This document shows positions 1 to 30,845 of a DNA stretch of 64,000 nucleotides, one piece after another. Below the pieces are notes generated by a model that did not search any database, was not told the DNA's origin, and was given only the letters and a program-made list of their open reading frames with translations. A program made the position numbers and the translations under genes. Position 1 is the first letter of the stretch. Each line of letters starts with the position of its first letter. Source of the stretch: Thermoanaerobaculia bacterium (GTDB lineage Bacteria; Acidobacteriota; Thermoanaerobaculia; Multivoradales; JAHEKO01); contig JBATEX010000114.1 in NCBI GenBank assembly GCA_049664225.1, positions 56,351 to 120,350 of the forward strand, read 5' to 3'.

Positions 1-456
1 GTGCTGTACCTTCTTTGCCTTCCAGGACTCGATCTCCGAATGGCAGGTAGCGCATAGTTCGTTGGGCTGATCGAGGAGCATCCCACGAATATTGCCGCCA
101 TGAGGTTGATGACATTGGGTACATGCGCCTTCGGCGAACGGCTGATGAATGACTGTTCGCTGGGCTGCAAGGGTGGTGTTGGGGTGGCAGGAAGCGCAAA
201 GGACACCGGGCCTCTCCAGCAGCAACCCGGCAATTCGCGAGACGTGTGGATTGTGGCACGCGATGCAGTCGCCCTCCGTGATCGGCGGGTGAGGGAATTT
301 GCTGGCCATCGCTTCATCGAAATCGTGGCACTCGAGACAGACTCGACCGTCCTGCGCGCTGGCCAGCGAGGGAGAGGCCTCACTCCGATCGGGCCCGAGC
401 ACCAATGCGAACCACAACGCAGCTAGTAATCCGACGCAGCTGAGCAGCGTTTTCAC
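1..456 (-). CDS. multiheme cytochrome c, partial (3' part lies beyond window start)
   Basis: Reverse-strand reading from a GTG at 456-454 gives VKTLLSCVGLLAALWFALVLGP... (signal-peptide-like). It continues with CLECH, CIACHNPH, CASCH, CTQCHQPH and CATCH motifs to position 1 without a stop. The GTG overlaps the TGA stop of the upstream 26-haem gene (GTGA). This ORF is not in the track because it is incomplete. Confidence 0.6.
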   Translation of the reverse strand, partial: MKTLLSCVGLLAALWFALVLGPDRSEASPSLASAQDGRVCLECHDFDEAMASKFPHPPITEGDCIACHNPHVSRIAGLLLERPGVLCASCHPNTTLAAQRTVIHQPFAEGACTQCHQPHGGNIRGMLLDQPNELCATCHSEIESWKAKKVQH

Positions 457-2414
457 TGAGCACCTCCTGACGGCTCTGTCACCGCTTCGTGGCAAGCGGA
501 ACAGTCGCCGGCAGCAAACGGGTCGTGTTGCTGCGGCTGTAGTAGACCTGTCATCAGCGAAGCATGCGGGTCGTGGCAGGATGCACATTCGAGACCGTCG
601 CCTGAAAACCCAAGGTGGTCTGCGGTGAATCCCGTATCGCCGGTCTCGTGGCACTGCCCACAGGTAGCGCTCTCGCTGTCCAGTAGCAGGTTTCGCTCCG
701 CCGTTGCATGGGGACCATGGCAGCCGAGGCAGCCATCGGGCTCGCCGGCTGGTTGATGTACAGTCTCGGTAGCCAACCGTTCACCCAGATCCGAATGGCA
801 GGTGAAGCAAAGGGCAGGTATCGCAGCGCGAAGCAGAGGCTCCCTTTCACTTGCGTGTGGCTGGTGGCAGGCCGAGCATTCGTTGGCAGCGGGCGCATGC
901 AAGCTGCCGCCTTCCTCCGGCGCATCCGCTGTGTCGTGACAGGTGCGACACAGCCGCCCCGGCGACTCTGTAAGGAGGAACTCGACATCGGAGCCGTGGG
1001 GCAGATGGCAGGTTGCGCACTCACCCTCCTCGAAGGGGACATGTAACTGACGTTCTGTCGGCGAGGTTTCTGACGAATGACATTCGGAACACAAATCCTT
1101 GCCCTGTGCTAGCAGGAGTCCGGTGTTTCCACCGTGGGGCGTATGACACCCGGTGCATTCGCCGCGGGCTACAGGTTCGTGAAGAACTCGCAGACCGGCG
1201 CGGGCTCCGATGCCACCGTGACAGTCGCCACACAGATCATCCTGCCGAGCCACCAGAAGTCCCTCGCGACCGGAGCCATGCGGAGCATGGCAGAGGGTGC
1301 AGCTCTCTTCCAGAGGAGAGTGGCTGACTTCGACATCGCCCGCCGGATCACCATGGCAGTCAAGGCACAGTTGCCGCTCTGTTGTGCGCAACAGTGCGGG
1401 ATGGTTCGATTCGTGTCCGCTGTGGCAATTTGTGCACTGCTCCATCGCGGCGTGCGGATGGCTACCGGATCGGAACTGCTCGGCTTCGGTATGACAGGAA
1501 GTACAGAGCAGCAGCTCGCTGTTCGCGAGTAGAGGAGCGGTCGCTGAGGTGTGGGGCTGGTGACAATCCAGGCAGAGCCCACCGGCTGCCGGTCCATGCG
1601 TCGAGGTGGCGGAGCCGGTCGGAGGATCATGGCAATCCAGACAGATCTTGGCGTCGGGCAGATTCGCCAACTCACTGTCGTCCCGGTGGCAGGACGTACA
1701 GTCGAGATCTGGATGGACGGAGGCCAGCAGCAGTCCTTCCGAGGCCCCCGAATGAGGAGAGTGACAGCTGGTGCACTGACTGCCTGTGGGCTGCAGCCCT
1801 CCATGGGCGGCACGAAGCCCGTCGCCAGAGTCGTGACACTCGAAGCAGAGCGATGCTGCAGGCAACGCGAGTAGTTGCTCTTCGGTACTGCCGTGAATCG
1901 CGTGACAAGACAAACATCCGCCGTCCATCGCAGCGTGTTGCGCACTACCCTCGAAGCTGGAGCTCCCGTGGCAGGAGAGACACATCTCCTTCTCCGGCTG
2001 CTGAAGCAAACCGGCGTTGTCGGACCCATGAGGGTTGTGACAGGTGGAACAAGCTTCGATATTTGGATGTCGCACAGCGCTGTCGAGCCCCAGATCCTCA
2101 CTCGAGTGGCAATCCGAACAGAGCTCGAGCTCGTCGCTCTTGAGCCTCAATACACCCACGATTCCGTGTGGCTGATGGCAGGAGGTGCAATCTCCTCCGA
2201 TCATCGGTTCATGGGCGAAGGCGACCGGCTTGACGCTGTCGGCATGACAGTCGGCACAGGTTCCTCCCCGATCGAAGCGAGAGCCGCGCTTCAGCTGCGC
2301 CATCGCCGGAGCCGTTGCCATGAGACTCCAGAGCAGGACGACTGCTCCGGCCGTGGCCAGCCAGGGAAGCCCAGGACCCGAGCACTTGGTTGTCTTGGAG
2401 ATGAATCCAGTCAT
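453..2414 (-). CDS. 26-haem c-type cytochrome with periodic CxxCHxPH repeats
   Basis: I count 26 CxxCH motifs in the translation. The predicted signal peptide is MTGFISKTT...ATAPAMA|Q. I trimmed the start to the internal Met at 2414 because the track start at 2501 overlaps the upstream gene by 68 nt; the true start remains uncertain. Confidence 0.85.
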   Translation of the reverse strand: MTGFISKTTKCSGPGLPWLATAGAVVLLWSLMATAPAMAQLKRGSRFDRGGTCADCHADSVKPVAFAHEPMIGGDCTSCHQPHGIVGVLRLKSDELELCSDCHSSEDLGLDSAVRHPNIEACSTCHNPHGSDNAGLLQQPEKEMCLSCHGSSSFEGSAQHAAMDGGCLSCHAIHGSTEEQLLALPAASLCFECHDSGDGLRAAHGGLQPTGSQCTSCHSPHSGASEGLLLASVHPDLDCTSCHRDDSELANLPDAKICLDCHDPPTGSATSTHGPAAGGLCLDCHQPHTSATAPLLANSELLLCTSCHTEAEQFRSGSHPHAAMEQCTNCHSGHESNHPALLRTTERQLCLDCHGDPAGDVEVSHSPLEESCTLCHAPHGSGREGLLVARQDDLCGDCHGGIGARAGLRVLHEPVARGECTGCHTPHGGNTGLLLAQGKDLCSECHSSETSPTERQLHVPFEEGECATCHLPHGSDVEFLLTESPGRLCRTCHDTADAPEEGGSLHAPAANECSACHQPHASEREPLLRAAIPALCFTCHSDLGERLATETVHQPAGEPDGCLGCHGPHATAERNLLLDSESATCGQCHETGDTGFTADHLGFSGDGLECASCHDPHASLMTGLLQPQQHDPFAAGDCSACHEAVTEPSGGAQ

Positions 2415-2433
2415 GATCTCGACGCAAACCCTC

Positions 2434-4179
2434 TCAAGGTAAGCCGTGCGCCCCCGGCTCGTCGCCGGTGGCGCTTTCGGCATTGATCTGTAGCGATGCA
2501 ATGTGATCCTCGTAGAACCGGATGTCCGAGTTCTCCCGCAGCGTCATGAGAAGGCTATCCATGGTCTCGGCAAACTTGAGGGACTTGAGACGGTTTCGGA
2601 CGTTTCCCGACACCTCTTCGAATGAATAGTCGCCCTGTTCCTCGACCGCTGCAACTCGCAGAACCACGAAGTTGTCCTCCCACCCCTTGGGGCCGAGAAT
2701 CTCGCCTGCCTCCGTCACTCGCAGCTCGGAGGGACTGAAGGGCTCGATCGCTCGACCCGATTTGATCCACCCGCGATCGCCGCCACTGTCTTTGAACCGA
2801 TCGATAGAGCGCTGGCGGGCAATCCACGACATGTCGGCACCTTCGCGCAAGAGTTGGGCGACCTCTTCAGCCTCCTCCAGCGTGGTAGTGGTGACCTGGA
2901 AGATCCTCAGGTTCGGGGGCTTGCGAAACTCCGGGCGATGCGTTTCATAGTACTGCTCGGCCTCCTCTTGGGGAACCTCGAGGCTTGGCAAGATCACCTC
3001 GTCCAGGTATTTGCCGACCAGAAGTCGGGTCAGATTCGCCTGTTGAGCCCGCTCGACGTCTGGCGAATCACCATAGCCCATGGCCAGGGCCTCGACGAGG
3101 ATCACTTGCTCGGCGATGAGCTTATCGAGAACCAGAGGCTTGGTGAGAAGCGCTGCCTCTTCGTTTTGTACGTTGCGCCAGCGGTCGAGCAGAGCGGCCC
3201 CGAGGTCATCAGCACGAATCAAGCGGTCTTGGATTTGCACAAGGATCTGTTTGGGGTCCGGGACCACCGGCCATAGCCCCTCGCTGCCCCGGCGTTCACA
3301 CCCTATGGCGGCAATGGCCTCGTTGTCGATCTCTGGCTCATGCTTGGCGAGTAGCTCTGCCAGAAGTTCTGCCCTCAGGGTGTCCGCCTGGCGCAACTCG
3401 AGGATCCCCCGAATCCGATCCTCGACCGTTGGCAGGACTTGCGGATCAGCGGCAGCGAAGCTCTCGGCGCGGAACACCGTCCATCCCAGCTCGTTGAGAA
3501 GGGGAGCTGACAGGCTGCCTGGCTCCAGATCGAAGACGACTTCGGCGATCTCGGGAGGCAGGTTCCTGTAGGGGAAATTCTCTGCCAGTCCCCCTTGCCC
3601 TCTCAGGCCGTCGACCGAACGCTCCCTGGCGAGAGCCTCGAAATCTGCACCGGCACGGATCTCGTCGAGGAATCGGCCGGCCTCCTCTCGGGACTTCAAT
3701 GTTGCCATGTGAGCGGTGACTGTGCGGTAGTCCGACTCGAAGATCGTCTCGATCAGACTCTCGTCGATCTCGACTCGGCTCGTGATCGCCTCGTACTCGA
3801 GCCTCTCACGGGCCATGTCGTCGCGCAGTTTTTCGAGTCGCTTCGGAATGGGAGCTTCGCGATCCATCGCCAGGGCCGCGGCCTCGCCTGCGAGGAGAGC
3901 ATCCCCAACCAGCCTATTGCGGATGAGTGAGTCGACGTCGAAGTCGGGCCGCGAGGAAGCCTGAATCCGAGAGTGGAGATCGGAGAGTACCCTTTCCAGG
4001 TCCTCTACATAGACTGGCCAGTCGTTGACCATGGCCAATAAGTTCTTGTCGACAGCGACCTCTTTGGGGATTGCGCTCGAAGTCGGCTCTTCTGCCTGAG
4101 TCCCAGCCGGATGGGCGACGACTGCAAACCCAGCGATGAGGGCCAGTTGGATTGGTAGGGCCAGAAATCTGGTTGACAT
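2434..4179 (-). CDS. SurA/PpiD-like periplasmic chaperone with two PpiC (parvulin) PPIase domains
   Basis: Signal peptide MSTRFLALPIQLALIAGFAVVAHPA. There are two parvulin-like segments (...FEALARERSVDGLRGQGGLAENF... and ...MSWIARQRSIDRFKDSGGDRGWIKSG...). The ATG at 4177-4179 overlaps the TAA stop of the upstream gene (TAATG). Confidence 0.7.
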   Translation of the reverse strand: MSTRFLALPIQLALIAGFAVVAHPAGTQAEEPTSSAIPKEVAVDKNLLAMVNDWPVYVEDLERVLSDLHSRIQASSRPDFDVDSLIRNRLVGDALLAGEAAALAMDREAPIPKRLEKLRDDMARERLEYEAITSRVEIDESLIETIFESDYRTVTAHMATLKSREEAGRFLDEIRAGADFEALARERSVDGLRGQGGLAENFPYRNLPPEIAEVVFDLEPGSLSAPLLNELGWTVFRAESFAAADPQVLPTVEDRIRGILELRQADTLRAELLAELLAKHEPEIDNEAIAAIGCERRGSEGLWPVVPDPKQILVQIQDRLIRADDLGAALLDRWRNVQNEEAALLTKPLVLDKLIAEQVILVEALAMGYGDSPDVERAQQANLTRLLVGKYLDEVILPSLEVPQEEAEQYYETHRPEFRKPPNLRIFQVTTTTLEEAEEVAQLLREGADMSWIARQRSIDRFKDSGGDRGWIKSGRAIEPFSPSELRVTEAGEILGPKGWEDNFVVLRVAAVEEQGDYSFEEVSGNVRNRLKSLKFAETMDSLLMTLRENSDIRFYEDHIASLQINAESATGDEPGAHGLP

Positions 4180-5252
4180 TATCGTCCTACTCCTGTGAGT
4201 TCGAGAGATGGAGATTGATCGGCGAGATCGCTGGTCAGTCGAGCCAATAGCACCGTCAGCAGTTGGCCACGGGAGTATATGCGACGGCCCCGAAAGATCG
4301 TCTGCCGAAACCAGCCGTCACGCTCCAGTGCTCCGGTCCAGACAATTCTTCCGCTCTCGGCGTCGAGTCCTCGCAGAGCGACGGCTACAAAGGGTCTTGG
4401 TTCGGTGCCGGGACCTGCTTCATAGGCTTCGACCGATCCGGTGAGGATCAAGTTGACCTGGCACTCTTCTGCGATGGCGGTCCAGACCTCTCGGCTCAAC
4501 TCGCCCCACCTCCGAGCCCGGTGCTGCCGCAGAACCTCGGCAATTCGGTTTGGAGCCACGATGTCGACCCCGTTTTCTCGGAGCACGGAGTAGAGCGCTT
4601 GCGTGGCTGCGTCGGCGGTGGCAGACGCACGTCTCGCGCTGCTACTGCTCAGGGGTAGGACCGCTATCCTTCCGACAGCGGCCTGCCAATTCGCGCTTGA
4701 TGACGAAGATTCGAGAGGGCGGGGAGCCTCCTCGGCCGTGAGGTCGAGTTGGTCGACAAGATCCAGCAGCGCGAGGTCAGCGAGTCGATCGAGGTCCCAG
4801 ACCTCTCCGAGCCCGAGGAAGTGCAGTCCATCGATGCCGGTTGCGCTCTTGAATGCGCTGCGCGAGTCCTCCGGGGAATCTCCCCTTACCGCCAGAGCAG
4901 AGAGAGTGATGGTAGGTACAGGACGGCTGCGGGATTCATGGAGGGTCACTGAAACGAGCCAGTCGGCCTTCAGAGCTGCTGCTAGTCGAGCGAGGTTCTC
5001 GGCCCCGGCATCGTCAACCTGACGAATTCGGAGCTGGCGAAGAGTGTCGCGCACGTGATTGCGCTCGACCACGGGCCCGGTTCCGAGGAGAAGATTCTCC
5101 AGGTATGTCGCTATTCTCGCCGTCGTGACCGGGTCCGATGCGCGATCCCGCACCGAAATGATCGCCGAGGCCGGCAGCTGCCCTGAGGAGCTGGCCTCGG
5201 CAACGATAGGAAGCAGAACAAGAACGGCAACAAGGCTTGGGCGTAGGCGCAC
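4179..5252 (-). CDS. periplasmic protein with two tandem LpoB/TolB-N/CsgG-like alpha/beta domains
   Basis: Signal peptide MRLRPSLVAVLVLLPIVAEA. Two repeats carry the pattern (I/V)xV-P-L...A..L...L...G...V and ...LILTGSVEAYEAG...RPFVAVALRGLDAESGRIVWTG, which echoes the 204-aa lipoprotein next door. Confidence 0.5.
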   Translation of the reverse strand: MRLRPSLVAVLVLLPIVAEASSSGQLPASAIISVRDRASDPVTTARIATYLENLLLGTGPVVERNHVRDTLRQLRIRQVDDAGAENLARLAAALKADWLVSVTLHESRSRPVPTITLSALAVRGDSPEDSRSAFKSATGIDGLHFLGLGEVWDLDRLADLALLDLVDQLDLTAEEAPRPLESSSSSANWQAAVGRIAVLPLSSSSARRASATADAATQALYSVLRENGVDIVAPNRIAEVLRQHRARRWGELSREVWTAIAEECQVNLILTGSVEAYEAGPGTEPRPFVAVALRGLDAESGRIVWTGALERDGWFRQTIFRGRRIYSRGQLLTVLLARLTSDLADQSPSLELTGVGR

Positions 5253-5274
5253 GATTTCGAATCCTGGATCGTCG

Positions 5275-5889
5275 TCAATCGAGAAGAGTATCGAGCAGCT
5301 TTTGGATGCACCGGCGGGTCGTCTCGGCTAGAGGTTCGCCACCCGTGCCCAGCAGGCGAGCGCCGACCGTGCTCCCCTTCTCGGTGTGAGTGGCGGCCCA
5401 GACGATGGCTCCGGTATCGGTTTCGATCATCTGGGCGTCGAGGGTGACAACGGGTCGAAGGGCGGATCCGAATCGCATGACCTCGGATTGGGCGACCGTG
5501 CCAATCACAACCGCCTGTACCCCCAGAGCCTGACCGAGGCCCAGGGCTTCTTCGGAACTGGGTGCGGTCATCCTGCCGCTGCCCATCTTGCGCATCGCCG
5601 CCTGTACCTCGCCCGGCTCGACCACGTCCAGAGCGCCGCTGGCAAGGAGCTCGGTGATCAGCAGGCGCGTAGCCCGCTCGCCGGCCTGAGAATCGGAGCT
5701 CAAATTGGCGAAGGGAATCACCGCCACCCGCTGGACGTATGAGAAATCAAAGCCGGGGTTGGCGAATTGAGTGGTCGGAAGGCTGCTCGAGCAGGCGAGC
5801 AGCGCCATCAAGCCTGTCGAGGTCAGCAGGATGAGAGAGACCCGATTGAGAGTCGTGATTCGCGATTTGCCCATGAACTTGGCCCCCAT
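5275..5889 (-). CDS. lipoprotein of the LpoB/TolB-N/CsgG-like fold
   Basis: Lipobox ...GLMALLAC|SSS. It has the motifs VAVIPFANLSSD...ATRLLITELLASGALDVVEP...VVIGTV...VTLDAQMIETDTGAIVWAA, which parallel E. coli LpoB (LLVDSVNN...LQMQLMLVQTGEIIWSG) and CsgG core strands. Its start abuts the barrel's stop codon (TGAATG). Confidence 0.6.
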   Translation of the reverse strand: MGAKFMGKSRITTLNRVSLILLTSTGLMALLACSSSLPTTQFANPGFDFSYVQRVAVIPFANLSSDSQAGERATRLLITELLASGALDVVEPGEVQAAMRKMGSGRMTAPSSEEALGLGQALGVQAVVIGTVAQSEVMRFGSALRPVVTLDAQMIETDTGAIVWAATHTEKGSTVGARLLGTGGEPLAETTRRCIQKLLDTLLD

Positions 5890-7986
5890 TCAATAGAAGA
5901 AGATGCTGAAGCCGAACAGCAGACTGTTGGTTTGTGAGGTCAGATCACCCCTGAAAGTCACCTCGGATCGGTTCCATCTGCCGGTGAGCAGAACCCGCGG
6001 GTTCAACCGATAGTCAGCCCCAACGGATGCGCCCGACGTCTTTCGCTCCGAGTCGGTGCTGCTTTGGTTGTAGGAAACATTGACGCTCAACTTCGGTCCC
6101 GGAACGAAGAAGATACCGTACCGCTGGCCGGTCGACGTTTGTTCGTTGTCTCGGGACCAAGAGAATAGGCCATTGAGAAACAGGAACGACCCGGGGCTCC
6201 AGGTCGACCCGACCTTGAAGAACTGTCGCTCCAACAGGCTTTCTTGGAGTGGCGATTCGATGAGCGAGTAACCGAGTGCACCATCGAGAGTCCAACGCTG
6301 TGTCGGCCTCGACCTGAGATCCTCACGCCATGACCATGTATTGCGATCCTGATCTCCGGTCGGATCAGTGAGTTCGGAATAGGAGAGAGTGGAAGTCAAG
6401 TCGAGGTCGGGCAGCAAGGCGGTAAACACTCTGAGACGGATGGCGTCGACGGTCTGGAGCAACAGCTCCTTCTCGGCTTGGTCCCTCCGGCTTGCCGAAA
6501 GGACTGCGTCGAGCGTTGGCAGCGGCACCCATCGCAGTGCCGCATCGATCGTCTCGGTCGTGCGAAACAGACCCCCAGCCGTGCGATTCTCGGAGTCGCT
6601 GTAACGATAGCCGCCACTGAGCTCGAGATCCGAAGTCAATCGAACCCCGACGCTGCCCGACGCGTGACGTTCGTTGAAGTCGCGCCGCACAATGCCCGCC
6701 GTCACGGTCTCGTCGTTGCTGCCTCCGAGGTTGAACCTGGCTGTCACTCGGCGTGAGGGGCGCAAGCCGAGAGAAACATCCCCACGATAGAGTGTACTGT
6801 CTTGGGTGCTCTCTCCCGGCTCGATGTCGAGGTCTCTGAAAGCGGCAATCTCAGTCACCAGGACCACTGGAACCACGTTGGGTGAGATGTTGACGACCTT
6901 GAAGAAACGCTGGTTGGTCTCAGGAAAGCTGACTCTATAGAGCTGTCGACCAGCGTCGAATTCCGCCGACTCGCCCGCTACCCGCTCCCAGATCAGGTTG
7001 TCGGCGCTCTGAAACACCTGCCACAGCACGGCGGGGCCCGAAGGCCGATCGACCGAGACCTCGAGACGCGAGACAGGCAGAATCGCGCCGACGTCGATGC
7101 CGAGATTCCGAAAGGCGTTACCACCACCGATATCGATGATCGGAGGGGAGGGAGTAAAACGGTCGCCGTCGATGAGTCCAGGAGCGGGCTCGAGCTCGCC
7201 AACCTCCGGTGAAGTATCGATCGCGTAGAGGCCCTGAACCGCTGGAATCGGCTCGGCGAGGTCGTCATCTCCAGAGGTCCTCGACTGACTCTCGATGCGA
7301 CCCGCCGAGCCCGAGAAGCCCAGGCGGAGGCGCTCGTCGAAGAAGCCACGGCTTCCCGCCAGTCTCAATCGATGGACATCCTGGAGCGAGGCGAAGTCGG
7401 TAGATTCCTTCTCCAGGTCGTTGCGATTGAAGGAGTATCCCGCAGACCACCGTTTCCGCCTGTAGGTCGCATCGAAGAGGTAGGTGCGTTGGTGACCATC
7501 CCGGCCCAGGGCCGACACGTCGGCCTCGTTCTTGGAGTCGCGCGCCTGGCCCGAAAGAGTCAGCCCCCTCGTTGCGCGCCACGAGAAGCCGCCAAACAGC
7601 GCGTCAGACTGAAAGTCCTCGCTTTCGAAGGTTCCCTGAGACGTCCGCCGCTCAGCTCCCAGGTATGCGGACAAGGATGGCCTGTCATAGAGCAGCTGAA
7701 ATCGGGGATTCTGTCGGGTGCGGCTCGCCTCCGGTAGGCCGCTGAACTGGGAGGTGTAATCATAGTAGCGATAGCCGGCCTGCAATTTCAAGAAAGGCGC
7801 CAATTCCTCGGTCAGCCTCAGCGAGTACTTTTGCTCGAGGTTGTCACTGTCGGTCGCCAGGGTGTCGACGGATGTCCAGTAGACGATGGCGGTCGCGTTG
7901 AAGTCGAGGGCAAGAGCGAGTTGAGGCGAGGTCAAGAACGCAACGAGGGCGACTCGAGCCAACAGCTGTTGAAGGTCCAGGCGCAT
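5890..7986 (-). CDS. large outer-membrane beta-barrel protein (698 aa) with an internal soluble insert
   Basis: Signal peptide MRLDLQQLLARVALVAFLTSPQLALA. The body shows alternating hydrophobic/polar amphipathic strand patterns. The C-terminus ...LLFGFSIFFY ends in an aromatic residue, as in BAM-dependent OMPs. A polar/Pro-rich insert of about 150 aa (DDDLAEPIPAV...VTEIAAF) sits mid-protein. Confidence 0.7.
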   Translation of the reverse strand: MRLDLQQLLARVALVAFLTSPQLALALDFNATAIVYWTSVDTLATDSDNLEQKYSLRLTEELAPFLKLQAGYRYYDYTSQFSGLPEASRTRQNPRFQLLYDRPSLSAYLGAERRTSQGTFESEDFQSDALFGGFSWRATRGLTLSGQARDSKNEADVSALGRDGHQRTYLFDATYRRKRWSAGYSFNRNDLEKESTDFASLQDVHRLRLAGSRGFFDERLRLGFSGSAGRIESQSRTSGDDDLAEPIPAVQGLYAIDTSPEVGELEPAPGLIDGDRFTPSPPIIDIGGGNAFRNLGIDVGAILPVSRLEVSVDRPSGPAVLWQVFQSADNLIWERVAGESAEFDAGRQLYRVSFPETNQRFFKVVNISPNVVPVVLVTEIAAFRDLDIEPGESTQDSTLYRGDVSLGLRPSRRVTARFNLGGSNDETVTAGIVRRDFNERHASGSVGVRLTSDLELSGGYRYSDSENRTAGGLFRTTETIDAALRWVPLPTLDAVLSASRRDQAEKELLLQTVDAIRLRVFTALLPDLDLTSTLSYSELTDPTGDQDRNTWSWREDLRSRPTQRWTLDGALGYSLIESPLQESLLERQFFKVGSTWSPGSFLFLNGLFSWSRDNEQTSTGQRYGIFFVPGPKLSVNVSYNQSSTDSERKTSGASVGADYRLNPRVLLTGRWNRSEVTFRGDLTSQTNSLLFGFSIFFY

Positions 7987-8189
7987 TCTTCGGATTTCTG
8001 TGCTGGGCGACCTCGAGTCCGGAGCGATAGAGGGCAGGTGGAGCCTCGCCTACCGGTGGATGGTGTCACTCTGCACCGCAGCTGTCACCGGCTAAAAGGG
8101 TGGTGTCCCTGGGGGTCTGGGGTAGGTTGCGAACTACCCTTTTGATCAGGCCTACACCGCGCGGGCCACTCCGCACCGGCCGATACTAG

Positions 8190-8217
8190 AAAAATGCCCG
8201 GGGCCGAAGCCCCGGGC
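8190..8217 (-). terminator. Rho-independent terminator immediately downstream of the hexahaem cytochrome gene
   Basis: The minus-strand RNA would read GCCCGGGGC-UUCG-GCCCCGGGC followed by AUUUUUCUAG. That is a 9-bp GC stem with a UUCG tetraloop and a U-run, 30 nt after the stop at 8248. Confidence 0.7.
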
Positions 8218-8247
8218 ACGGATTCAATCAACCAGCTGGCTTGCGGG

Positions 8248-9381
8248 TTACGGAATAATCAGGCTATCGAAAATGTCCTGGCCGTGGCACTTGTTGCAGA
8301 GCGAACGCGTAACCAGGTCGGCCGGGTACGGATTCGGCAGTGGGTAGGTCCCGAAGGCGTCGCCGTCCTCTTCCAGAAAGGTCACGTTGAAGTCCCAGCG
8401 GCCGGAGTCGGCAGCCGAGGATGCGTGCGCGAAATGGCAGGTCACACAGGCGACCACGCTGGAATCCTGAGCACCGACGGTCGAGCCTATGTCGGTTTCA
8501 TCGAAGGTCGAATCTTCGAAGGGCACCTGCCATAGGTAGGCTGTGGCTGCGGTACCGCTGCCACAGGGCGGTGCAGTGGAGGCGACACAGTCGGTCGTTC
8601 CCATGTAGGCGTTGTACTGCTCCCAGACTTCTTCCATGGATTCGCCCGAGGGATGGATGTCGCGGCCTGAGCCCTGATGGAACAGGCCATGGCACGTCGA
8701 GCACCACGCGCTGTAGTTCAAGACGTAGACATTGTGCTCAGGATCGACCCGTGGGTCGTTGCTCAGTGACTGTCCATACGCTTCGATGGTCGCGGCGTAG
8801 GTGACCGACGAAACGCCGAGATCCACTTCCTGGTCTTGACGATAGAGGAGCCGGAAACTGTCGTTGCCGTGTGGGTCGTGGCAGCTCGAGCAGGCGATGT
8901 CGTTGTCTACGGTATTGCTGCTGCCGGGTGCCCAGTCGAGGGTCTGGTCGACATCGGTACCCTTGATATTCGACGCGATGTTGTGGCCAGCCGCGTCGCC
9001 AGGAATCGGAGCGCCACGTGTCGACTCGGCTAGATTGGCTTCGGTCAAGAAGCTGAAGTCACCAGCGTTTCCGAAGTCGACGGGGTCTGTCGCATCGGGA
9101 CTCCACACCGAGTAGCTCCTGCCTGTACGGCCATGGCAGCGCAGGCAAACGTCACTCCTGTTCGGAAAGAGAAGGAGGTCGTTGTAGCCTTCGCCAGGGA
9201 GTTTGTCTGGGTTGATCGGATTGCCGTTGGCATCCGCCTCGGTGCCGTTCATGGCAACACCGTTCTGGCTGTTGTGCATGGTGTGGCAACCGTTGCAGTG
9301 AGCGACACCACCGTCATGGAAAGCCATGACCGGGGTGGCGAGGATCACTGCGGCGGCCACCAGTAGCAGGGTTTTTTTCAT
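8248..9381 (-). CDS. secreted hexahaem c-type cytochrome, OmcS-like (candidate nanowire subunit)
   Basis: Start at the internal Met (MKKTLLLVAAAVILATPVMA|F) preceded by AAGGAG. There are six CxxCH motifs (CNGCH, CLRCH, CSSCH, CSTCH, CVTCH, CNKCH). The mature N-terminus FHDGGVAHCNGCHTMHN resembles Geobacter OmcS as I recall it (FHSGGVAECEGCHTMHN; Phe1 and His16). The C-terminus ...LCNKCHGQD is also similar. Confidence 0.75.
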   Translation of the reverse strand: MKKTLLLVAAAVILATPVMAFHDGGVAHCNGCHTMHNSQNGVAMNGTEADANGNPINPDKLPGEGYNDLLLFPNRSDVCLRCHGRTGRSYSVWSPDATDPVDFGNAGDFSFLTEANLAESTRGAPIPGDAAGHNIASNIKGTDVDQTLDWAPGSSNTVDNDIACSSCHDPHGNDSFRLLYRQDQEVDLGVSSVTYAATIEAYGQSLSNDPRVDPEHNVYVLNYSAWCSTCHGLFHQGSGRDIHPSGESMEEVWEQYNAYMGTTDCVASTAPPCGSGTAATAYLWQVPFEDSTFDETDIGSTVGAQDSSVVACVTCHFAHASSAADSGRWDFNVTFLEEDGDAFGTYPLPNPYPADLVTRSLCNKCHGQDIFDSLIIP

Positions 9382-9456
9382 TTGGCTTCTCCTTTGTTCA
9401 AAGTAACCGGAGTTCCGGTTGGTTTGCGTTTCTATTCTCCCTCGGCCCTCTATGTG

Positions 9457-9472
9457 AGCAAGGGGCATGCCA
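9457..9472 (-). promoter_or_regulatory. sigma-54 (-24/-12) promoter for the cytochrome/barrel operon
   Basis: The minus strand reads CTGGCATGCCCCTTGCT, i.e. TGGCAT-N5-TTGC against the consensus TGGCAC-N5-TTGC. It lies about 75 nt upstream of ATG 9381. An NtrC-family activator is encoded just upstream. Confidence 0.6.
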
Positions 9473-9656
9473 GGTCCCGAGGCTCGCTTGGTTGATTGAA
9501 ATGCGAGGATAAATAGCCATTCGTGCATGGGCGTAAAGCCTCTAATTGCTGAGGTTTACCATTCAAAGTGCTGGTGCTCTCGATGAAAACGGAGCGACCT
9601 TGGAGCATGCCCCGAGCCCTCACCACGATCATTAGAAGGCTTGTGGGGCGTTTGGG

Positions 9657-9802: not shown

Positions 9803-10198
9803 TCAAGTCTCGGGTGTCTCACTGCCCTTGACTTTGTACTCGTTGTAGCGCACCAGGCGCTCGAGCTGCTCCTTGAGATCGGAAGCGTGGTAGGGCTTCT
9901 CGATGAAGAAGCAGGAGTGATTCAGGGGGCCGAGGCCGGCCTCTTCGGGGCTGTGAAACACGCAAGATTCAAACAGTACCGGGATTTTCGGCGACCGACC
10001 CTGGCAGAGATCCTGGAACTCTCTCCAGGGAAGGCCGTCGGGGCCGATGTTGGCTATGACGGCCTCGGGCGGCCGTTTCTCGAGGGCCGAGAGAGCGTCG
10101 TCGAAGGTGGAGACCTCTTCGAGATCGACCTGGCCGTCGAGAATTCTCTTGATGATCGAGATCAACAAATGACTGCCGTCGAGGACTAGGAACCGCAT
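9803..10198 (-). CDS. stand-alone CheY-like receiver-domain protein (possibly atypical)
   Basis: I chose the second ATG, which is preceded by GGGAGGG: MRFLVLDGSHLLISIIKRIL...AVIANIGPDGLPW...IPVLFES...IEKPY. This is a receiver fold. By my manual alignment the usual phospho-Asp position appears to be Asn. The ORF-track N-terminal extension overlaps a repeat and was not used. Confidence 0.5.
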   Translation of the reverse strand: MRFLVLDGSHLLISIIKRILDGQVDLEEVSTFDDALSALEKRPPEAVIANIGPDGLPWREFQDLCQGRSPKIPVLFESCVFHSPEEAGLGPLNHSCFFIEKPYHASDLKEQLERLVRYNEYKVKGSETPET

Positions 10199-10518: not shown

Positions 10519-11880
<1,362 letters not shown>

Positions 11881-11887
11881 GGGCTAA

Positions 11888-13573
11888 TCAAGCGGGGTCG
11901 TTTCCCGGGAGCGCCGGTTCTGTGAGTTCTGACTCGTCAAGTGCATCGCTGTCTGATGTCGGTGCCGGCTCTTCACCCTCTTCCCCTGGAAGGATCAAGT
12001 AGAAGTTCGTTCCCTTGCCGACTTCGGAATCGACTTGCAGCGTACCACCGTGCTGCTCCACGAGGCTCCGAGCGATGGCCAGTCCGAGGCCTGTCCCTGA
12101 GAACTTGGTGGAGAAGAAGGGCTCGAATACACGCTTGAGCTGTTCGGGTGGGATGCCGGGGCCGTCGTCTTGCACCGCCAGCACGATGCCGCCGCCTTCT
12201 GGGAAGCCGCTAGCACGAACCGTGACGGCCCCACCGTCCTCCATGGCTTCGGCGGCGTTCTGGATGAGGTTGAGGAGCACCTGCCGAATCTTCGAGCCGT
12301 CGATCTGGGCCTCCAGGGGGCCTTCGGTTAGATCGAGCTCCAGGGCCACGTTCTGGCGTCGCAAACCGGGGGCCATGAGGATGCGGACGTCGTCCAACAG
12401 CTTGTTGAGATCGGTTTTCGCCAAGCGGGCCGGGCCGGGTCGTGCCGAGCCGAGCAGGCTGCGCAGCGTCCCATTGACCCGCTTCAGCTCGCTCAGCATC
12501 TCGTCGTACAGCTCTTTGTTGGAGTCGCTTACCGATGGTTCTTCCCGCAAGATCTCCAGTGCACCCTGAATTCCGGCCAGGGGATTCTTGATTTCATGGG
12601 CAAGACCGGCCGCCAGGCTGCCGAGGCTCGCCAGCTGGTCAGTGTGGGCCAGTTTGGTAGCTACCTCCGCTTGCCGGCGACGCTGCCGCTGCAGGAACTG
12701 CTGGAGGGAGCGCTGGAGCTCCGCCGAATGGGGGTCGAGGACCAGCCGGTGGGCTCCGGAGGCCGGTCCCTCGCCCGACTCGGCGGCGGCCAGTTCCTCT
12801 TCGAATTTGCTGGAGAAACGTTGCACGGATCGCCTAACCAGGGCGTTGATGCCGCCCAGGGCCGCTGCCCAGGCCAGCAGGAGGAGTCCGACATTACGCC
12901 GCGAGTGCTTTCGGACCGTTTGGAGAGCGTTGGTGACGTCCATGCTCATGGAGGCGACGGCAAGCGTTTCACCAGCGGAGTGGCAGCGCACGCACTGCTC
13001 CGTGGAAATCACTTTGCTAATACCCCGCACCCTTTCGCGATCTCCCTCTGCACTGAGCCACACCTCCTGCAAGCGTGGGCTGGGAATGAACTCCTGCACG
13101 ACCTCGAGCTCTGGGACCGTGATTCCGGTGGCGGCTCCAATTGTCCTTCCGTCAGGAAACATCAGTTTGAGATTCATGCCCTGGTGGCCGGCCAGAACCG
13201 CCTCGAACATGTGGCGGACACCGCCGCCACGGGTGTGTGCAACGGCGATCTGGTTGAGTTCTCGAGTCGCGATATTCAGTCTTCCTTCGGCTGTTTCGCG
13301 AGCCAGGCCCACGACTTCCATCTCCGTGATGCGGACCGTCGCGAAGTAGAGAATCCAAAAGGCGAACAGGTGCAGGGGCAGAGTGATCAGCCAGAAGCGC
13401 CCACGGCGAGCCATGAAAGCGCGGAACCGGGCCCGCCTACCGGGCCTGCTCAGGACCTCCACAGGTCCATCGGAAGAGTCGATCTCGGGGAGTTCCCCGT
13501 TGGTCTCTTCGCTGCCGGCAACGCCAGGCTCGATCGCTCCTTCGATGGGTCCCTCGGATTCCTGCGATGTCAT
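11888..13573 (-). CDS. sensor histidine kinase with a periplasmic CxxCH (haem-c) sensor domain
   Basis: TM1 FWLITLPLHLFAFWILYFATV. A periplasmic segment of about 170 aa contains CVRCH (nt ~12980-12994). TM2 VGLLLLAWAAALGGINALV. H-box LAHEIKNPLAGIQ. HATPase motif GTGLGLAIARSLVEQHGGTL. The start is ambiguous (M at 13573 or 13414). Confidence 0.85.
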   Translation of the reverse strand: MTSQESEGPIEGAIEPGVAGSEETNGELPEIDSSDGPVEVLSRPGRRARFRAFMARRGRFWLITLPLHLFAFWILYFATVRITEMEVVGLARETAEGRLNIATRELNQIAVAHTRGGGVRHMFEAVLAGHQGMNLKLMFPDGRTIGAATGITVPELEVVQEFIPSPRLQEVWLSAEGDRERVRGISKVISTEQCVRCHSAGETLAVASMSMDVTNALQTVRKHSRRNVGLLLLAWAAALGGINALVRRSVQRFSSKFEEELAAAESGEGPASGAHRLVLDPHSAELQRSLQQFLQRQRRRQAEVATKLAHTDQLASLGSLAAGLAHEIKNPLAGIQGALEILREEPSVSDSNKELYDEMLSELKRVNGTLRSLLGSARPGPARLAKTDLNKLLDDVRILMAPGLRRQNVALELDLTEGPLEAQIDGSKIRQVLLNLIQNAAEAMEDGGAVTVRASGFPEGGGIVLAVQDDGPGIPPEQLKRVFEPFFSTKFSGTGLGLAIARSLVEQHGGTLQVDSEVGKGTNFYLILPGEEGEEPAPTSDSDALDESELTEPALPGNDPA

Positions 13574-13604
13574 TCGGCTCGGGTGACCTCGGCTTGAATT
13601 CCGG

Positions 13605-14423
13605 CTAGGTGGTCTTATTGCCCCTGAGCGCCATGAAGACCAGGAGAATGCCCACGCCGATGACAATCAGGCCTGGAACCAGCCAGGGAGACACTCCCTC
13701 GGATGGAGGTGGTCCGGCCTGGCTTGCAGCTCCACTGGTAGGCACTGACGCAGGAGACTGGAAGGTCTGAGCTGGTGTCTGTGGAACAGCCGATTGCATG
13801 GCGTTCGCAGTGAGCATCGGGGAACTCTTCGTGTAGTCGATTTCGATCGCGAAGGTCTGGTCGACGGCTGCCGGGCCGAGGTCTCCGCGTTGATAGATGA
13901 GGCCGTCGTTGGCCAGGGCGGGTGCGCTGCTAGCGGGCTGCACCACGAAACCGGTAGCGCCGATCGGTTGCATGACCTCGAACAGGACGCGATCTGCTGC
14001 CAAGCCCCCAGGCCATTCGAAGTGGTAGTGGCGGTTCTCGTTGCCCAAATCGAGGGGTATGTAGTACTCGAGGCGAATCTCGGGAGCGTCGGTCGAGATG
14101 TAGACCGTGCTCATAGGGTCGCCGGCTTCCAGCATGGACTGGGCGACAAGCAGATCGCCCCCTGGGAACCTCTTTGCCACGGCGCTCGGACTCCCTGCCG
14201 CGGCTGGAATCGGCAACGGTACCGAGGTCGGAAGTGGGGTGTCTGGCGAGAGAAAGCCCCGAAGCATCACGAGCACCGAAGGCTGGTCGTACTCCGGCCA
14301 GATGGAGATCTCCAGGCGCTCGAGGCGCGGCGTGGCCGGTGCAGGCGCTTCCTGGGCGGAAGCAATGCCTGCCGAGGTCAAGAGTAGGACAAGGAAGGCG
14401 AGAGTCGTTGGCCTGGTCTTCAT
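13605..14423 (-). CDS. secreted protein with a C-terminal membrane anchor, function unknown
   Basis: Internal-Met start with signal peptide MKTRPTTLAFLVLLLTSAGIASA|Q. C-terminal helix WLVPGLIVIGVGILLVFMAL. It sits immediately upstream of, and overlaps, the kinase gene. Confidence 0.45.
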   Translation of the reverse strand: MKTRPTTLAFLVLLLTSAGIASAQEAPAPATPRLERLEISIWPEYDQPSVLVMLRGFLSPDTPLPTSVPLPIPAAAGSPSAVAKRFPGGDLLVAQSMLEAGDPMSTVYISTDAPEIRLEYYIPLDLGNENRHYHFEWPGGLAADRVLFEVMQPIGATGFVVQPASSAPALANDGLIYQRGDLGPAAVDQTFAIEIDYTKSSPMLTANAMQSAVPQTPAQTFQSPASVPTSGAASQAGPPPSEGVSPWLVPGLIVIGVGILLVFMALRGNKTT

Positions 14424-25416: not shown

Positions 25417-25983
25417 CTAATCATGGTTGTACTTCAGAGGCGTGCTCTCATGGAGCCCTTCAGCCTTCTTGGTCTCGTAGTCGAAAGTGTAGTCGGGGAT
25501 CGGCACCTGTTCGTTGTGGCACTGGGTACAGACCGCCTCGTCTACGGGGTGAACCAGACCGACACCGACTAGGTCCGCCCGTTTGTATTCCTTGTTCTTG
25601 AGCGTCATGTAGCCGTCCTGGGTGTATCCGGCCCCGGCTCCATGACACATCTCGCAACCGACGCCGGCCAGATCGGGAGTGGCTTCGATGCTGGTGAAGC
25701 CGCCCTCTTTGCCGAGACCGGTCACATGGCAACGGACACAGGCCTCATCAGTGGTGTAATCCACTTCGGGATCGAGTCCGAGCTCGGCCTTGCGTTCCAC
25801 GTCTACCCCCGGCTTGAGTGTCTCGAAGGCGTTGGCCATCTTGGTCTCGGACCAGGACTTCCATTGCTTGATGTGGCACTTCTTGCAGTTCTTGGTGCCG
25901 ATGTAGGAATGCTCGCCATTTGCGGCTGACGCCAGCAAAAGAGCTGGGATGAACAGCAGCGAAAGAACTATTGCCTTCTTCAT
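25417..25983 (-). CDS. periplasmic tetrahaem cytochrome c
   Basis: Signal peptide MKKAIVLSLLFIPALLLASA. Four CxxCH motifs (CKKCH, CVRCH, CEMCH, CTQCH). Confidence 0.85.
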   Translation of the reverse strand: MKKAIVLSLLFIPALLLASAANGEHSYIGTKNCKKCHIKQWKSWSETKMANAFETLKPGVDVERKAELGLDPEVDYTTDEACVRCHVTGLGKEGGFTSIEATPDLAGVGCEMCHGAGAGYTQDGYMTLKNKEYKRADLVGVGLVHPVDEAVCTQCHNEQVPIPDYTFDYETKKAEGLHESTPLKYNHD

Positions 25984-28940: not shown

Positions 28941-30845
28941 GTGGGATCCAGGATTCTCCGATTCATGCTGGTCGCCTCCCTTGGTGGGGGCGCGGCCTTT
29001 CTCGTATCGCCGGCACCATCAGCAGGCGCCGATGCGCCGATGTGCCTCGACTGTCACGACACCGATGTCGATGCGTTCGCTGAATCCGTTCACGGCTTCG
29101 CGGAGTGTCTCGACTGCCACGTGGGTGCCGACTCGGAAGACCACCCGGAAGTTGGCACGAAGGCCGACTGCACAGGCTGTCATGAAGGGGAGGTGGAACA
29201 GCACCATCTCAGTGTGCATGGTCGGATGGAGGCCTCCGGTCGACTTCCCGGCAATGGTGGCTGCGGCAGCTGTCACGGCGACATTCATACTCTTCTACTG
29301 CACGAAGATCCGGCGTCGGCGACCAATCCGCTTAGCATTGCCGGCACCTGTGGTAGCTGTCACTCCGATCCTGATCTGGCAGCCGATCTCGGAATCCGCC
29401 TCGTGCAGCCGATCGAGGCGTACAGCGAGAGCGTGCATTCGCGAGCCGTCCAGCGGGGTGTCAAGGCGGCCACTTGCTCCGAGTGCCATGGGACTCACGA
29501 CATCCAACCGGCTGCGAGGGTGGATTCAAGAGTCCATGCCGACAAAATCCCCCAGACCTGCGGCAAATGCCATGGCTCGGTGACCGCGGTTTTCAACGAG
29601 AGCGTCCATGGCCGGGCCGTGGCGCACGGCCTGGAGGATGCTCCGACCTGCACCGACTGCCATGGCGAGCACCGCATTTTGGAACCCAAGCGCGGTGACT
29701 CCACCGTCTATCCGACCAACCTGCCGAAGATGACCTGCGGCCGCTGCCACGGTGATCTGGCGCTGTCCGACAAGTTCGGGATGGAGGAGGACAAGGTCCC
29801 GGCGTACGAAGACAGTTACCACGGCCTGGCTTCCCGCTCCGGAAACGTCGTTGTGGCCAACTGCGCTTCGTGCCACGGCGTGCATGACATCCTGCCTTCG
29901 ACTGACGAGAAGTCGCATACCTTCCCGGATAATCTGGATGAGACCTGCGGCCAATGCCATCCGGGCGCCGGCGAGCGGTTCGCCATCGGCGCAGTGCATG
30001 TGCTGCCGGATGAGCCAGAGCACGCGGCCGTCTACTGGGTCCGCAAGATCTACCTCTGGCTGATCTTTCTCACGATTGGCGGGATGCTGCTGCACAACGC
30101 TCTCGACTTCTACCGGAAGCTCCGGCATCCGTTGCCTCGGCCCTCGGAGCAGGTGGAGGATGCGGTCGAGCGAATGTCGGTGGCGGGTCGCATCACTCAC
30201 GGCCTGTTGGCGGTGAGCTTTATCATCCTGGTCCACACCGGATTCGCACTCAAGTACCCCGAAGCGTGGTGGGCCTGCCCGTTGCCCTTCTTGAAGGGAT
30301 TCTGTGAGCTGCGAGGCTTGATCCACCGCATCGCTGCGGTGGTGATGATTCTCGCTTCGGTGATGCATGTCATCCACTTGATGGTCGATCGCAGGGCCAG
30401 GACCCTGATGAAGGGCATGATTCCCCAGCTCAGCGATCTGCGCGACCTGAAGGGCAAGTTCGACTATTTCCTCGGGCGCACCAAACATCCTCCGAAAGCA
30501 GAGTGGTTCAGCTACCCGGAGAAGATGGAGTATGGAGGGGTCCTGTGGGGCACGTTTGTAATGGCGGTGACAGGAGTGCTCCTCTGGTTCGAGAGCATCA
30601 CGCTCCGGTTCCTACCGAGTTGGACCCTGGATGTGGCGACCACGGTCCACTTCTACGAGGCGATTTTGGCGACTCTCTCAATTGCCATCTGGCACTTCTA
30701 CCACGTGATTTTCGACCCAGCAGTCTATCCAGTGGATACTGCTTTCCTGACCGGCGAGTCGCCACCGATTAGGAACCTCGAGCGCAATCCACCGAAGCTG
30801 CCTGAAGACAAGGATCACCCCCACGCCCCGGCGCATCCAGCGTAG
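28941..30845 (+). CDS. CbcL-like fusion: 11-haem cytochrome c N-domain plus a dihaem cytochrome b (FdnI/HydC-like) membrane domain
   Basis: GTG start after GGAGGGGGG, then a signal peptide. I count 11 CxxCH motifs. The C-terminal half has 4-5 TM helices with conserved His (LHNALDFY, ITHGLLAV, VMHVIHLM, WHFYHVIF). Confidence 0.8.
   Translation: MGSRILRFMLVASLGGGAAFLVSPAPSAGADAPMCLDCHDTDVDAFAESVHGFAECLDCHVGADSEDHPEVGTKADCTGCHEGEVEQHHLSVHGRMEASGRLPGNGGCGSCHGDIHTLLLHEDPASATNPLSIAGTCGSCHSDPDLAADLGIRLVQPIEAYSESVHSRAVQRGVKAATCSECHGTHDIQPAARVDSRVHADKIPQTCGKCHGSVTAVFNESVHGRAVAHGLEDAPTCTDCHGEHRILEPKRGDSTVYPTNLPKMTCGRCHGDLALSDKFGMEEDKVPAYEDSYHGLASRSGNVVVANCASCHGVHDILPSTDEKSHTFPDNLDETCGQCHPGAGERFAIGAVHVLPDEPEHAAVYWVRKIYLWLIFLTIGGMLLHNALDFYRKLRHPLPRPSEQVEDAVERMSVAGRITHGLLAVSFIILVHTGFALKYPEAWWACPLPFLKGFCELRGLIHRIAAVVMILASVMHVIHLMVDRRARTLMKGMIPQLSDLRDLKGKFDYFLGRTKHPPKAEWFSYPEKMEYGGVLWGTFVMAVTGVLLWFESITLRFLPSWTLDVATTVHFYEAILATLSIAIWHFYHVIFDPAVYPVDTAFLTGESPPIRNLERNPPKLPEDKDHPHAPAHPA

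Follow-up and report, generated by a model that had tools for sequence, protein, structure and literature searches.

A probable osc-type cytochrome-nanowire biogenesis cluster in Thermoanaerobaculia (Acidobacteriota)

The osc cluster and its probable counterpart in Thermoanaerobaculia

How cytochrome nanowires are secreted, anchored and charged is an open question in the field, and the closest described system is the osc (omcS companion) operon of Geobacter sulfurreducens, which is headed by omcS (GSU2504), omcT and oscC (GSU2501) according to a recent account (PMC13194489). As summarised there, OscH has been proposed to act in folding, OscE, OscF and OscG in secretion and OscD in nanowire morphology (Shen et al., 2025, Cell Chem Biol 32:239), OscI and OscJ being GSU2495 and GSU2494 (PMC13194489), and the system has been published as 'widespread and ancient' (Shen et al., 2025). 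In a second report, an eight-gene 'nanowire secretion' block (GSU2500-GSU2493) is placed downstream of the GSU2501-type hexahaem gene in every Geobacter genome having one, and GSU2495 is described as a protein of ~70 kDa with 26 haems (PMC12977616). For Thermoanaerobaculia, a cluster that combines OmcS-like genes of the six-haem type with genes for beta-barrels and periplasmic cytochromes has been reported from the marine Candidatus Polarisedimenticola svalbardensis and read as a possible metal-oxide-reducing conduit, PelC-like proteins and a peptidyl-prolyl isomerase (PPIase) not being discussed in the sections available to us (Flieder et al., 2021, ISME J; PMC8528874). The present text concerns a stretch of 64,000 nucleotides (nt) from a Thermoanaerobaculia bacterium (GenBank assembly GCA_049664225.1, contig JBATEX010000114.1, positions 56,351 to 120,350), hereafter called the window, which opens with a cluster of cytochrome, barrel and lipoprotein genes. 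From sequence comparison we consider it likely, with a probability of about 0.8, that this region represents the osc nanowire biogenesis cluster as it occurs in Thermoanaerobaculia (Acidobacteriota), in which an OmcS-like protein would putatively polymerise into an extracellular filament.

All seven minus-strand open reading frames (ORFs) of the cluster are found where an initial annotation, made from the letters of the DNA, had placed them (Table 1), and the junctions TGAATG (5889/5890), TAATG (4179) and GTGA (453-456) have been confirmed by direct reading; spacers of 22 nt and 19 nt precede the genes for the 357-amino-acid (aa) protein and the 26-haem cytochrome, respectively. The touching and overlapping junctions behind the proposed 'one translationally coupled operon' are real, but a spacer of 261 nt parts the OmcS-like gene from the barrel gene, so that the coupling does not extend to the subunit gene. 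CxxCH haem motifs number 6 in the OmcS-like protein, 26 in the 653-aa protein and 5 in the partial gene at the window edge. By homology and gene order, the barrel would correspond to OscE, the 204-aa protein to OscF, the 357-aa protein to OscG, the PPIase to OscH, the 26-haem cytochrome to OscI and the truncated gene to OscJ.

This assignment has been drawn from a comparison across phyla. GTDB species genomes have been scanned with an OmcS-family alignment whose first row is the OmcS N-terminus, and tblastn and phmmer searches with the window proteins have been run on the 79 loci kept (L numbers below); as Geobacteraceae proxies we have used Geomonas edaphica (L007), G. silvestris (L003) and a Geobacteraceae metagenome-assembled genome (MAG; L002), G. 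sulfurreducens PCA not being among the loci. The neighbourhood around OmcS homologues has been found conserved, the same order recurring in 32 of the 79 loci: an OmcS-like gene, an optional gene for ~465-500 aa (present in 17, absent from 15), a barrel of ~700-770 aa, a lipoprotein of ~190-205 aa, a protein of ~360-430 aa, a PPIase of ~560-610 aa, a 26-haem cytochrome of ~650-690 aa and a 16-haem cytochrome of ~400-480 aa. Block-bearing loci belong to Geomonas, with cultured species among them, and other Geobacteraceae, Nitrospirota, Acidobacteriota, Ignavibacteria, Zixibacteria, Krumholzibacteriota, Fibrobacteria, Myxococcales and Planctomycetota, and in every phylum examined cytochrome genes flank the block on both sides. 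Because the same order recurs across so many phyla, the arrangement is far beyond chance.

The proteins themselves match those at the same position in Geobacteraceae, with phmmer E-values of 5e-32 to 3e-37 for the 204-aa protein and 1e-21 to 1e-28 for the PPIase, whose two-domain layout is also present in L007. The family of the 357-aa protein aligns with the OscG-position proteins over 322 columns (hhalign, probability 99.2, E 6.5e-20), and window-type and Geobacteraceae-type barrels align over 674 columns, that is, over their full length including a large insert (probability 100, E 1.4e-57). For the barrels the profile-profile comparison has been decisive, pairwise phmmer of the window barrel against the Geobacteraceae barrels being non-significant for most loci.

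The optional gene of L007 encodes a YncE/lactonase-type beta-propeller at the OscD position, and the register of the block is therefore confirmed; OscD is said to be beta-propeller-like, with which the L007 gene agrees, and OscEFG channel-like. A tblastn search with seven OscD-position proteins has given no match anywhere in the 64-kb window, and since 15 of the 32 block-bearing loci are also without it, OscD looks like an optional module. Compared with G. sulfurreducens, the window region has the same gene order from the OmcS-family head to the NHL-repeat proteins, the latter lying beyond the window edge and being read from contig L081, which carries an identical OmcS-like protein. It differs in the absence of OscD, in a single subunit gene in place of omcS, omcT and GSU2501, in a shorter subunit from a sister clade and in an OscG-like protein that is not lipidated. 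The cluster of Candidatus Polarisedimenticola svalbardensis, from the same bacterial class, shares with the window the six-haem OmcS-like genes and their clustering with barrel and periplasmic cytochrome genes, and a Polarisedimenticolaceae locus (L046) has the same genes as the window at 35-64% identity.

The locus thus adds no new kind of system; it is probably an osc cluster in compact form, lacking OscD, and its phylum has no cultured nanowire producer. The label 'undescribed' given to it at first does not stand, osc having been published in 2025 and OmcS-like/barrel clusters of Thermoanaerobaculia MAGs having been reported in 2021 (PMC8528874). The accompanying idea of a dedicated machine that exports or anchors an OmcS-like filament has lost its novelty and otherwise matches the roles assigned to the homologous Geobacter osc genes.

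Some observations on the compared loci concern genes next to the block. A conserved haem-free protein of ~375-416 aa is encoded directly upstream of the OmcS-like gene in L027, L031, L037, L038, L044, L049 and L050 (mutual E 1e-57 to 1e-111; Ignavibacteria, Krumholzibacteriota, Zixibacteria and several unclassified MAGs), often preceded by a 7-haem cytochrome of ~270-300 aa; it has been searched for and not found in the window, and may be an extra, unnamed companion module. Two loci carry odd taxonomic labels, namely a MAG labelled Candidatus Heimdallarchaeota (L068) with OscD-like, PPIase and 26-haem genes of the osc block and a MAG labelled Nitrospira japonica (L001) with an OmcS 67% identical to that of Geobacter, and mis-binning is the most likely source of both labels.

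Table 1. Features of the cluster and of its upstream region (window coordinates).
Feature	Position	Strand	Remarks
Further multihaem cytochrome gene, 5' part	<1-456	minus	152 aa inside the window, gene cut by the window edge; OscJ (GSU2494) position
26-haem periplasmic cytochrome gene	453-2414	minus	653 aa; OscI (GSU2495) position
Double-parvulin PPIase chaperone gene	2434-4179	minus	581 aa; OscH (GSU2496) position
Tandem PelC/LpoB-like periplasmic protein gene	4179-5252	minus	357 aa, GTG start; OscG (GSU2497) position
PelC-type outer-membrane lipoprotein gene	5275-5889	minus	204 aa; OscF (GSU2498) position
Outer-membrane beta-barrel gene	5890-7986	minus	698 aa; OscE (GSU2499) position
F5/8-type-C (discoidin/CBM32-like) insert in the barrel	6811-7275	minus	residues ~238-392
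Intrinsic-terminator-like hairpin	8194-8219	minus	29 nt after the OmcS-like stop; 11-bp stem with 9 GC pairs, UUCG loop, then TTTTTCT
OmcS-family hexahaem c-type cytochrome gene, putative nanowire subunit	8248-9381	minus	377 aa from MKKTLLL
Sigma-54 (-24/-12) promoter-like element TGGCATGCCCCTTGCT	9457-9472	minus	76-91 nt upstream of the OmcS-like ATG
Small conserved gene between regulator and cluster	9803-10198	minus	131 aa as called on sister contigs L080 and L083
NtrC-type sigma-54-dependent response regulator	10519-11880	minus	Pfam Response_reg, Sigma54_activat, HTH_8
Sensor histidine kinase	11888-13666	minus	Pfam HisKA, HATPase_c; one CxxCH in the N-terminal sensor region

The OmcS-like subunit

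The OmcS-like protein has a signal peptide, the mature N-terminus FHDGGVAHCNGCHTMHN, the C-terminal sequence LCNKCHGQD and six CxxCH motifs, and it matches OmcS (PDB 6EF8) with an E-value of 1.5e-22 (phmmer against PDB) in three colinear segments, 21-173, 218-336 and 358-369, which span the whole protein. The resemblance to OmcS, first suggested from the six haem motifs and from both termini, has thus been borne out. In OmcS filaments, His16 is the inter-subunit haem ligand. H2, H16 and at least six further non-motif histidines are invariant in the OmcS-family alignment, and the motif FH.GGVA.C.GCHTMHN, which includes H16, is invariant in this alignment as well as in all 25 cluster-linked homologues. 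As every homologue aligned has it, the motif is of no use for telling OmcS apart from OmcT or paralogues of the GSU2501 type.

The family is large, a word-indexed search having returned 2512 homologues at E<=1e-3. In a neighbour-joining tree, the window subunit falls into a separate clade of short proteins (348-377 aa) that is sister to the entire OmcS/OmcT/GSU2501 group of Desulfuromonadia and Nitrospirota. Strict orthology is not obtained in this tree, the subunit showing no grouping with OmcS apart from the paralogues, and the protein is best regarded as a co-orthologue, not as OmcS proper.

The intrinsic-terminator-like hairpin behind the subunit gene lies in the 261-nt spacer (RNA fold -45 kcal/mol, z -4.6), and similar hairpins, recurring in the acidobacterial loci, follow the OmcS-like gene in L047, L061, L057, L046, L036, L050, L038 and L011. 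L002 and L003 have a hairpin after their first OmcS-like gene, whose product is nearest to OmcS of G. sulfurreducens, and none after the gene at the GSU2501 position. The hairpin of the window likely acts as an attenuator, set between the gene for the subunit and those for the machinery, and a terminator directly after the subunit gene fits a highly expressed structural subunit.

These data bear on a rival explanation, in which the block is a general secretion or maturation system for an ancestral, non-filamentous hexahaem cytochrome, nanowire use having arisen only in the Geobacter OmcS lineage, so that the window protein would be no nanowire subunit. The possibility is raised in PMC12977616, where every Geobacter genome with the block is reported to have the GSU2501-type cytochrome and not all of them OmcS, and it is in keeping with the position of the window protein beyond the OmcS/OmcT/GSU2501 clade and with its length, which falls about 50 aa short of OmcS. 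The inter-subunit ligand motif with H16 and all haem-ligand histidines are, however, invariant in the short clade too, and the terminator layout of the window resembles the one seen at the gene nearest to OmcS in L002 and L003 and differs from the one at the GSU2501 position. We regard this explanation as unlikely, and a putative filament subunit remains the preferred reading of the OmcS-like protein.

Barrel, PelC-like proteins and periplasmic cytochromes

The AlphaFold2 (AF2) model of the barrel, with a mean predicted local distance difference test (pLDDT) score of 85.5, comprises ~28 strands and an insert of ~155 aa between strands 11 and 12. A large barrel, as opposed to an ordinary one of 12-16 strands, is therefore predicted, and its linkage to cytochrome genes recurs across phyla, in agreement with the expectation of the initial annotation. 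The barrel family counts 1081 representatives at 50% identity (E<=1e-10 in 1.84 billion proteins). In NCBI, Thermoanaerobaculia MAGs encode hypothetical proteins with 100% identity to the barrel and to the other products. No sequence relative of the barrel has been found in the PDB, and fold searches have returned generic large barrels, the best structural match being MtrB with a template-modelling (TM) score of 0.42 at 8-11% identity; TonB-dependent receptors score similarly against the model, and Pfam MtrB_PioB reaches 22.1 bits, just under its cut-off of 23. The insert is a jelly-roll domain of the F5/8-type-C/CBM32-like kind: in the PDB, its profile finds the N-terminal domain of galactose oxidase (1.3e-4) and YeCBM32 (2.7e-4), Pfam F5_F8_type_C(_2) is matched by 6 of 13 barrel family members (best E 2e-5), and the Geomonas terrae orthologue is annotated as 'F5/8 type C domain-containing protein'. 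This insert also contains those columns of the barrel family that vary least, and it should face outward because it follows an odd-numbered strand, provided that the N-terminus of the barrel is periplasmic.

The two proteins encoded next belong to the fold class of CsgG, LpoB and TolB-N, as had been recognised at the outset, but their closest solved relatives have turned out to be PelC and not CsgG or LpoB. The 204-aa protein matches PelC structures 5T10 at 7.8e-6 and 9H80_C at 4.8e-5 (phmmer against PDB), and Pfam CsgG with 24.9 bits (cut-off 20.8) over profile positions 26-155 of 210, LpoB and TolB_N scoring lower. The family profile of the 357-aa protein finds PelC 9H80_C at 2.7e-11, and its AF2 model (mean pLDDT 71) shows two tandem alpha/beta domains for which Foldseek ranks PelC first (TMt 0.58-0.66), followed by FlgT, GNA1162, LpoB and CsgG. 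The description of both as lipoproteins holds for the 204-aa protein, in which the lipobox LLAC is present; the 357-aa protein has, in this lineage, a cleavable-looking signal peptide without Cys and no lipobox, whereas the lipobox Cys is invariant in the Geobacteraceae OscG-position proteins. CsgG has been rejected as the closest analogue, since PelC scores better throughout, and the likeness is confined to the fold class that CsgG, LpoB, TolB-N, GNA1162 and FlgT have in common with the PelC-like proteins of the window. The 204-aa protein is shorter than the CsgG chains of the fold search, and the window encodes a separate barrel. A CsgG-like membrane pore formed by the 204-aa protein appears unlikely, because of this length and because the Pfam match covers only the profile positions given above.

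In PelBC, a 12-mer ring of the lipoprotein PelC sits on the periplasmic rim of the outer-membrane barrel PelB, which has 16 strands and tetratricopeptide repeats (TPRs), as described in PMC12141448 (PDB 9H80). PelC (5T10/5T11/5T0Z) is related in sequence and in fold to the 204-aa protein and to the C-terminal domain of the 357-aa protein, and by this analogy PelBC would be the best structural precedent for OscF and OscG working with a barrel. The cargo differs, being a polysaccharide in PelBC and presumably a folded haem protein here. One may also ask whether the barrel and its partners constitute a Pel-like exopolysaccharide export module that stands beside cytochrome genes by coincidence, as two of the proteins have PelC as their nearest relative of solved structure and the barrel bears a CBM32-like domain. 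Yet no gene between 1 and 14486 has been assigned to PelA, PelD-G or another glycosyltransferase, the ~28-strand barrel without TPR is unlike PelB, and cytochrome genes flank the block on both sides wherever it has been examined, which makes such a coincidence extremely improbable. Neither PelB nor any other pel gene has been found by Pfam or in the AF2 barrel model, and Pel-type polysaccharide export has been rejected on the missing pel genes and the wrong barrel type.

The 581-aa protein matches Pfam Rotamase_2 (4e-20) and Rotamase (9e-16) in two stretches each, corresponding to two parvulin domains. A double-parvulin PPIase is thus confirmed; among PDB entries, the protein is closer to Cbf2, PpiD and PrsA than to SurA, which it matches weakly.

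For the 653-aa product, the count of 26 CxxCH motifs agrees with the haem number claimed for it earlier and with that of GSU2495. The motifs are spaced ~23 aa apart, Pfam Paired_CXXCH_1 is matched thirteen times, and the NCBIfam DmsE-family model scores 288 bits. Exactly 26 motifs are present in 19 of the 21 full-length (>=640 aa) orthologues, across phyla, and this constancy argues for a length constraint. MtrA holds 10 haems over about 8 nm; with the same haem spacing, the 26-haem protein would extend over about 20 nm, which is close to the width of the periplasm. Separately, the orthologue of L028 is a 1041-aa ORF with 42 CxxCH motifs, apparently a fusion of the 26-haem and 16-haem cytochromes, which suggests that the two proteins act as one continuous wire. 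The further cytochrome cut by the window edge has at least 15 CxxCH motifs overall on contig L081, where NHL-repeat proteins follow, and its orthologues elsewhere have 16. Gene calls on L081, an ENA contig, need care, as it is frameshifted relative to the window: a single product of 857 aa is called for the PPIase and 26-haem genes together, the N-terminus of the next cytochrome differs, and one NHL gene is split in two.

A very large barrel next to DmsE/MtrA-type multihaem periplasmic cytochromes is also found in MtrCAB and in the Geobacter porin-cytochrome conduits (Pcc; PDB 6R2Q), from which the window differs in having no MtrC/OmcA-type surface decahaem protein and in having PelC-like proteins, a PPIase and the F5/8-type-C insert. 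The cluster could be read as such a conduit, in which the barrel forms an MtrB-like sheath through which the 26-haem protein reaches the surface, the OmcS-like protein serves as a reductase, monomeric or short, docked there on the barrel, and the PelC-like proteins and the PPIase do no more than help with assembly of the complex. To our knowledge, MtrCAB and OmaB/OmbB/OmcB-type clusters contain neither PelC-like ring proteins nor a PPIase. The MtrB resemblance, moreover, is of a degree generic to large barrels, TonB-dependent receptors being similar, and the homologous Geobacter genes have been reported to affect the folding and secretion of OmcS nanowires. We hold a conduit of this kind to be quite unlikely as the full account, and it is compatible with the osc reading in so far as export and wiring of the filament could both fall to the barrel.

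In a more specific proposal, the complex of barrel and PelC-like proteins would serve for export and also stay in place as a lasting base of the filament, the invariant 26-haem protein with its 13 paired-haem repeats spanning the periplasm and running through ring and barrel directly into the first OmcS-like subunit, and the surface-exposed F5/8-type-C domain clamping the filament or lipopolysaccharide. We consider it unlikely; if true, the cluster would be a hybrid of porin-cytochrome conduit and filament secretion system, and would explain how nanowires are anchored and charged. Both the role of the 26-haem protein as a periplasmic wire and this hybrid are kept alive by such a possible reach of ~20 nm.

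Several points weigh against an osc assignment of the region. In the model comparison, the best structural match of the barrel is MtrB, which is a cytochrome sheath and not a secretion pore. The short clade of the subunit is without any member demonstrated as a filament former, and in Geobacter only OmcS itself is known to polymerise, according to PMC12977616. OscD is absent from the window cluster, and its OscG-like protein is without lipidation. Finally, the GSU locus-tag assignments rest on the gene order of Geomonas and other Geobacteraceae and on published descriptions. Across phyla, the strongest constraint has been found on the F5/8-type-C insert, the PelC-like pair and the exact number of 26 haems, which are targets for structural work in Geobacter.

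Regulatory elements, working model and neighbouring genes

Upstream of the subunit gene, TGGCATGCCCCTTGCT is the sole exact match to the sigma-54 consensus TGGYAYN5TTGCW within the 64-kb window. A comparable element, TGGCACATCCCTTGCT, is present at -98 in the related Acidobacteriota locus L061; among 19 related loci, L061 alone has the exact consensus ahead of its subunit gene, so the promoter may be specific to the lineage. The NtrC-type regulator adjoins the cluster in L061, L063 and L034 as well (64-69% identity), and similar regulators are encoded near the cluster in L011, L013, L018 and L023. It is the probable activator of the cluster, a link to the promoter that we infer. The neighbouring sensor kinase, which is conserved in L061 and L034, carries its CxxCH in the context ...EQCVRCHSAGE... 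and may be a haem-based redox sensor controlling the cluster; as the gene is called with 561 aa on sister contigs (L080), its true start lies probably near 13573. The C-terminal 130 aa of the small gene product between regulator and cluster are kept next to the regulator in L063, L061 and L034; a Pfam search with the product has given no match, and by eye it looks like a degenerate receiver domain.

Taken together, the following working model may be postulated. The sigma-54 promoter, probably through the adjacent NtrC-type regulator and the haem-motif sensor kinase, would drive transcription of the subunit gene, and the hairpin behind it would attenuate read-through, so that the subunit outnumbers the machinery. 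By analogy with the Geobacter work, the subunit would leave the cytoplasm via Sec and receive its haems in the periplasm, where the double-parvulin OscH-like chaperone would hold or fold it. It would then be handed over to the ~28-strand OscE-like barrel, to pass through it or be mounted on it, and beneath the barrel the OscF-like and OscG-like proteins, whose folds and homology are established, would assemble into a ring or funnel as in PelBC. At the cell surface, polymerisation could proceed via inter-subunit haem ligation of the N-terminal His16 type, for which the motif is present, and electrons would most likely cross the periplasm through the OscI-like and OscJ-like cytochromes and so arrive at the base of the filament.

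The rest of the window is rich in related genes, with at least nine multihaem cytochrome genes in total, including three of the cluster; Rfam families and tRNAs have been searched for in the 64 kb, and none has been found. A 4-haem c554-like protein is encoded at 25417-25983 (minus) and an 11-haem protein of 710 aa at 43550-45682 (minus). Rieske and cytochrome b genes, followed by those for a 9-haem cytochrome and for an 18-haem cytochrome with a NapC/NirT N-terminus, lie at 31049-35566 (plus), in what looks like a bc-type complex wired to multihaem cytochromes. At 28941-30845 (plus) and 36159-39131 (minus), multihaem cytochromes with 11 and 21 CxxCH motifs, respectively, are fused to a cytochrome b561 (Ni_hydr_CYTB) membrane domain, an architecture reminiscent of the CbcL-type inner-membrane quinol oxidoreductases of Geobacter, and either fusion is a candidate for the site where electrons enter the same transfer chain. 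Because the cluster shares the 64-kb stretch with these candidate quinol oxidoreductases and with the other multihaem cytochromes, the lineage may hold a complete extracellular electron-transfer chain.

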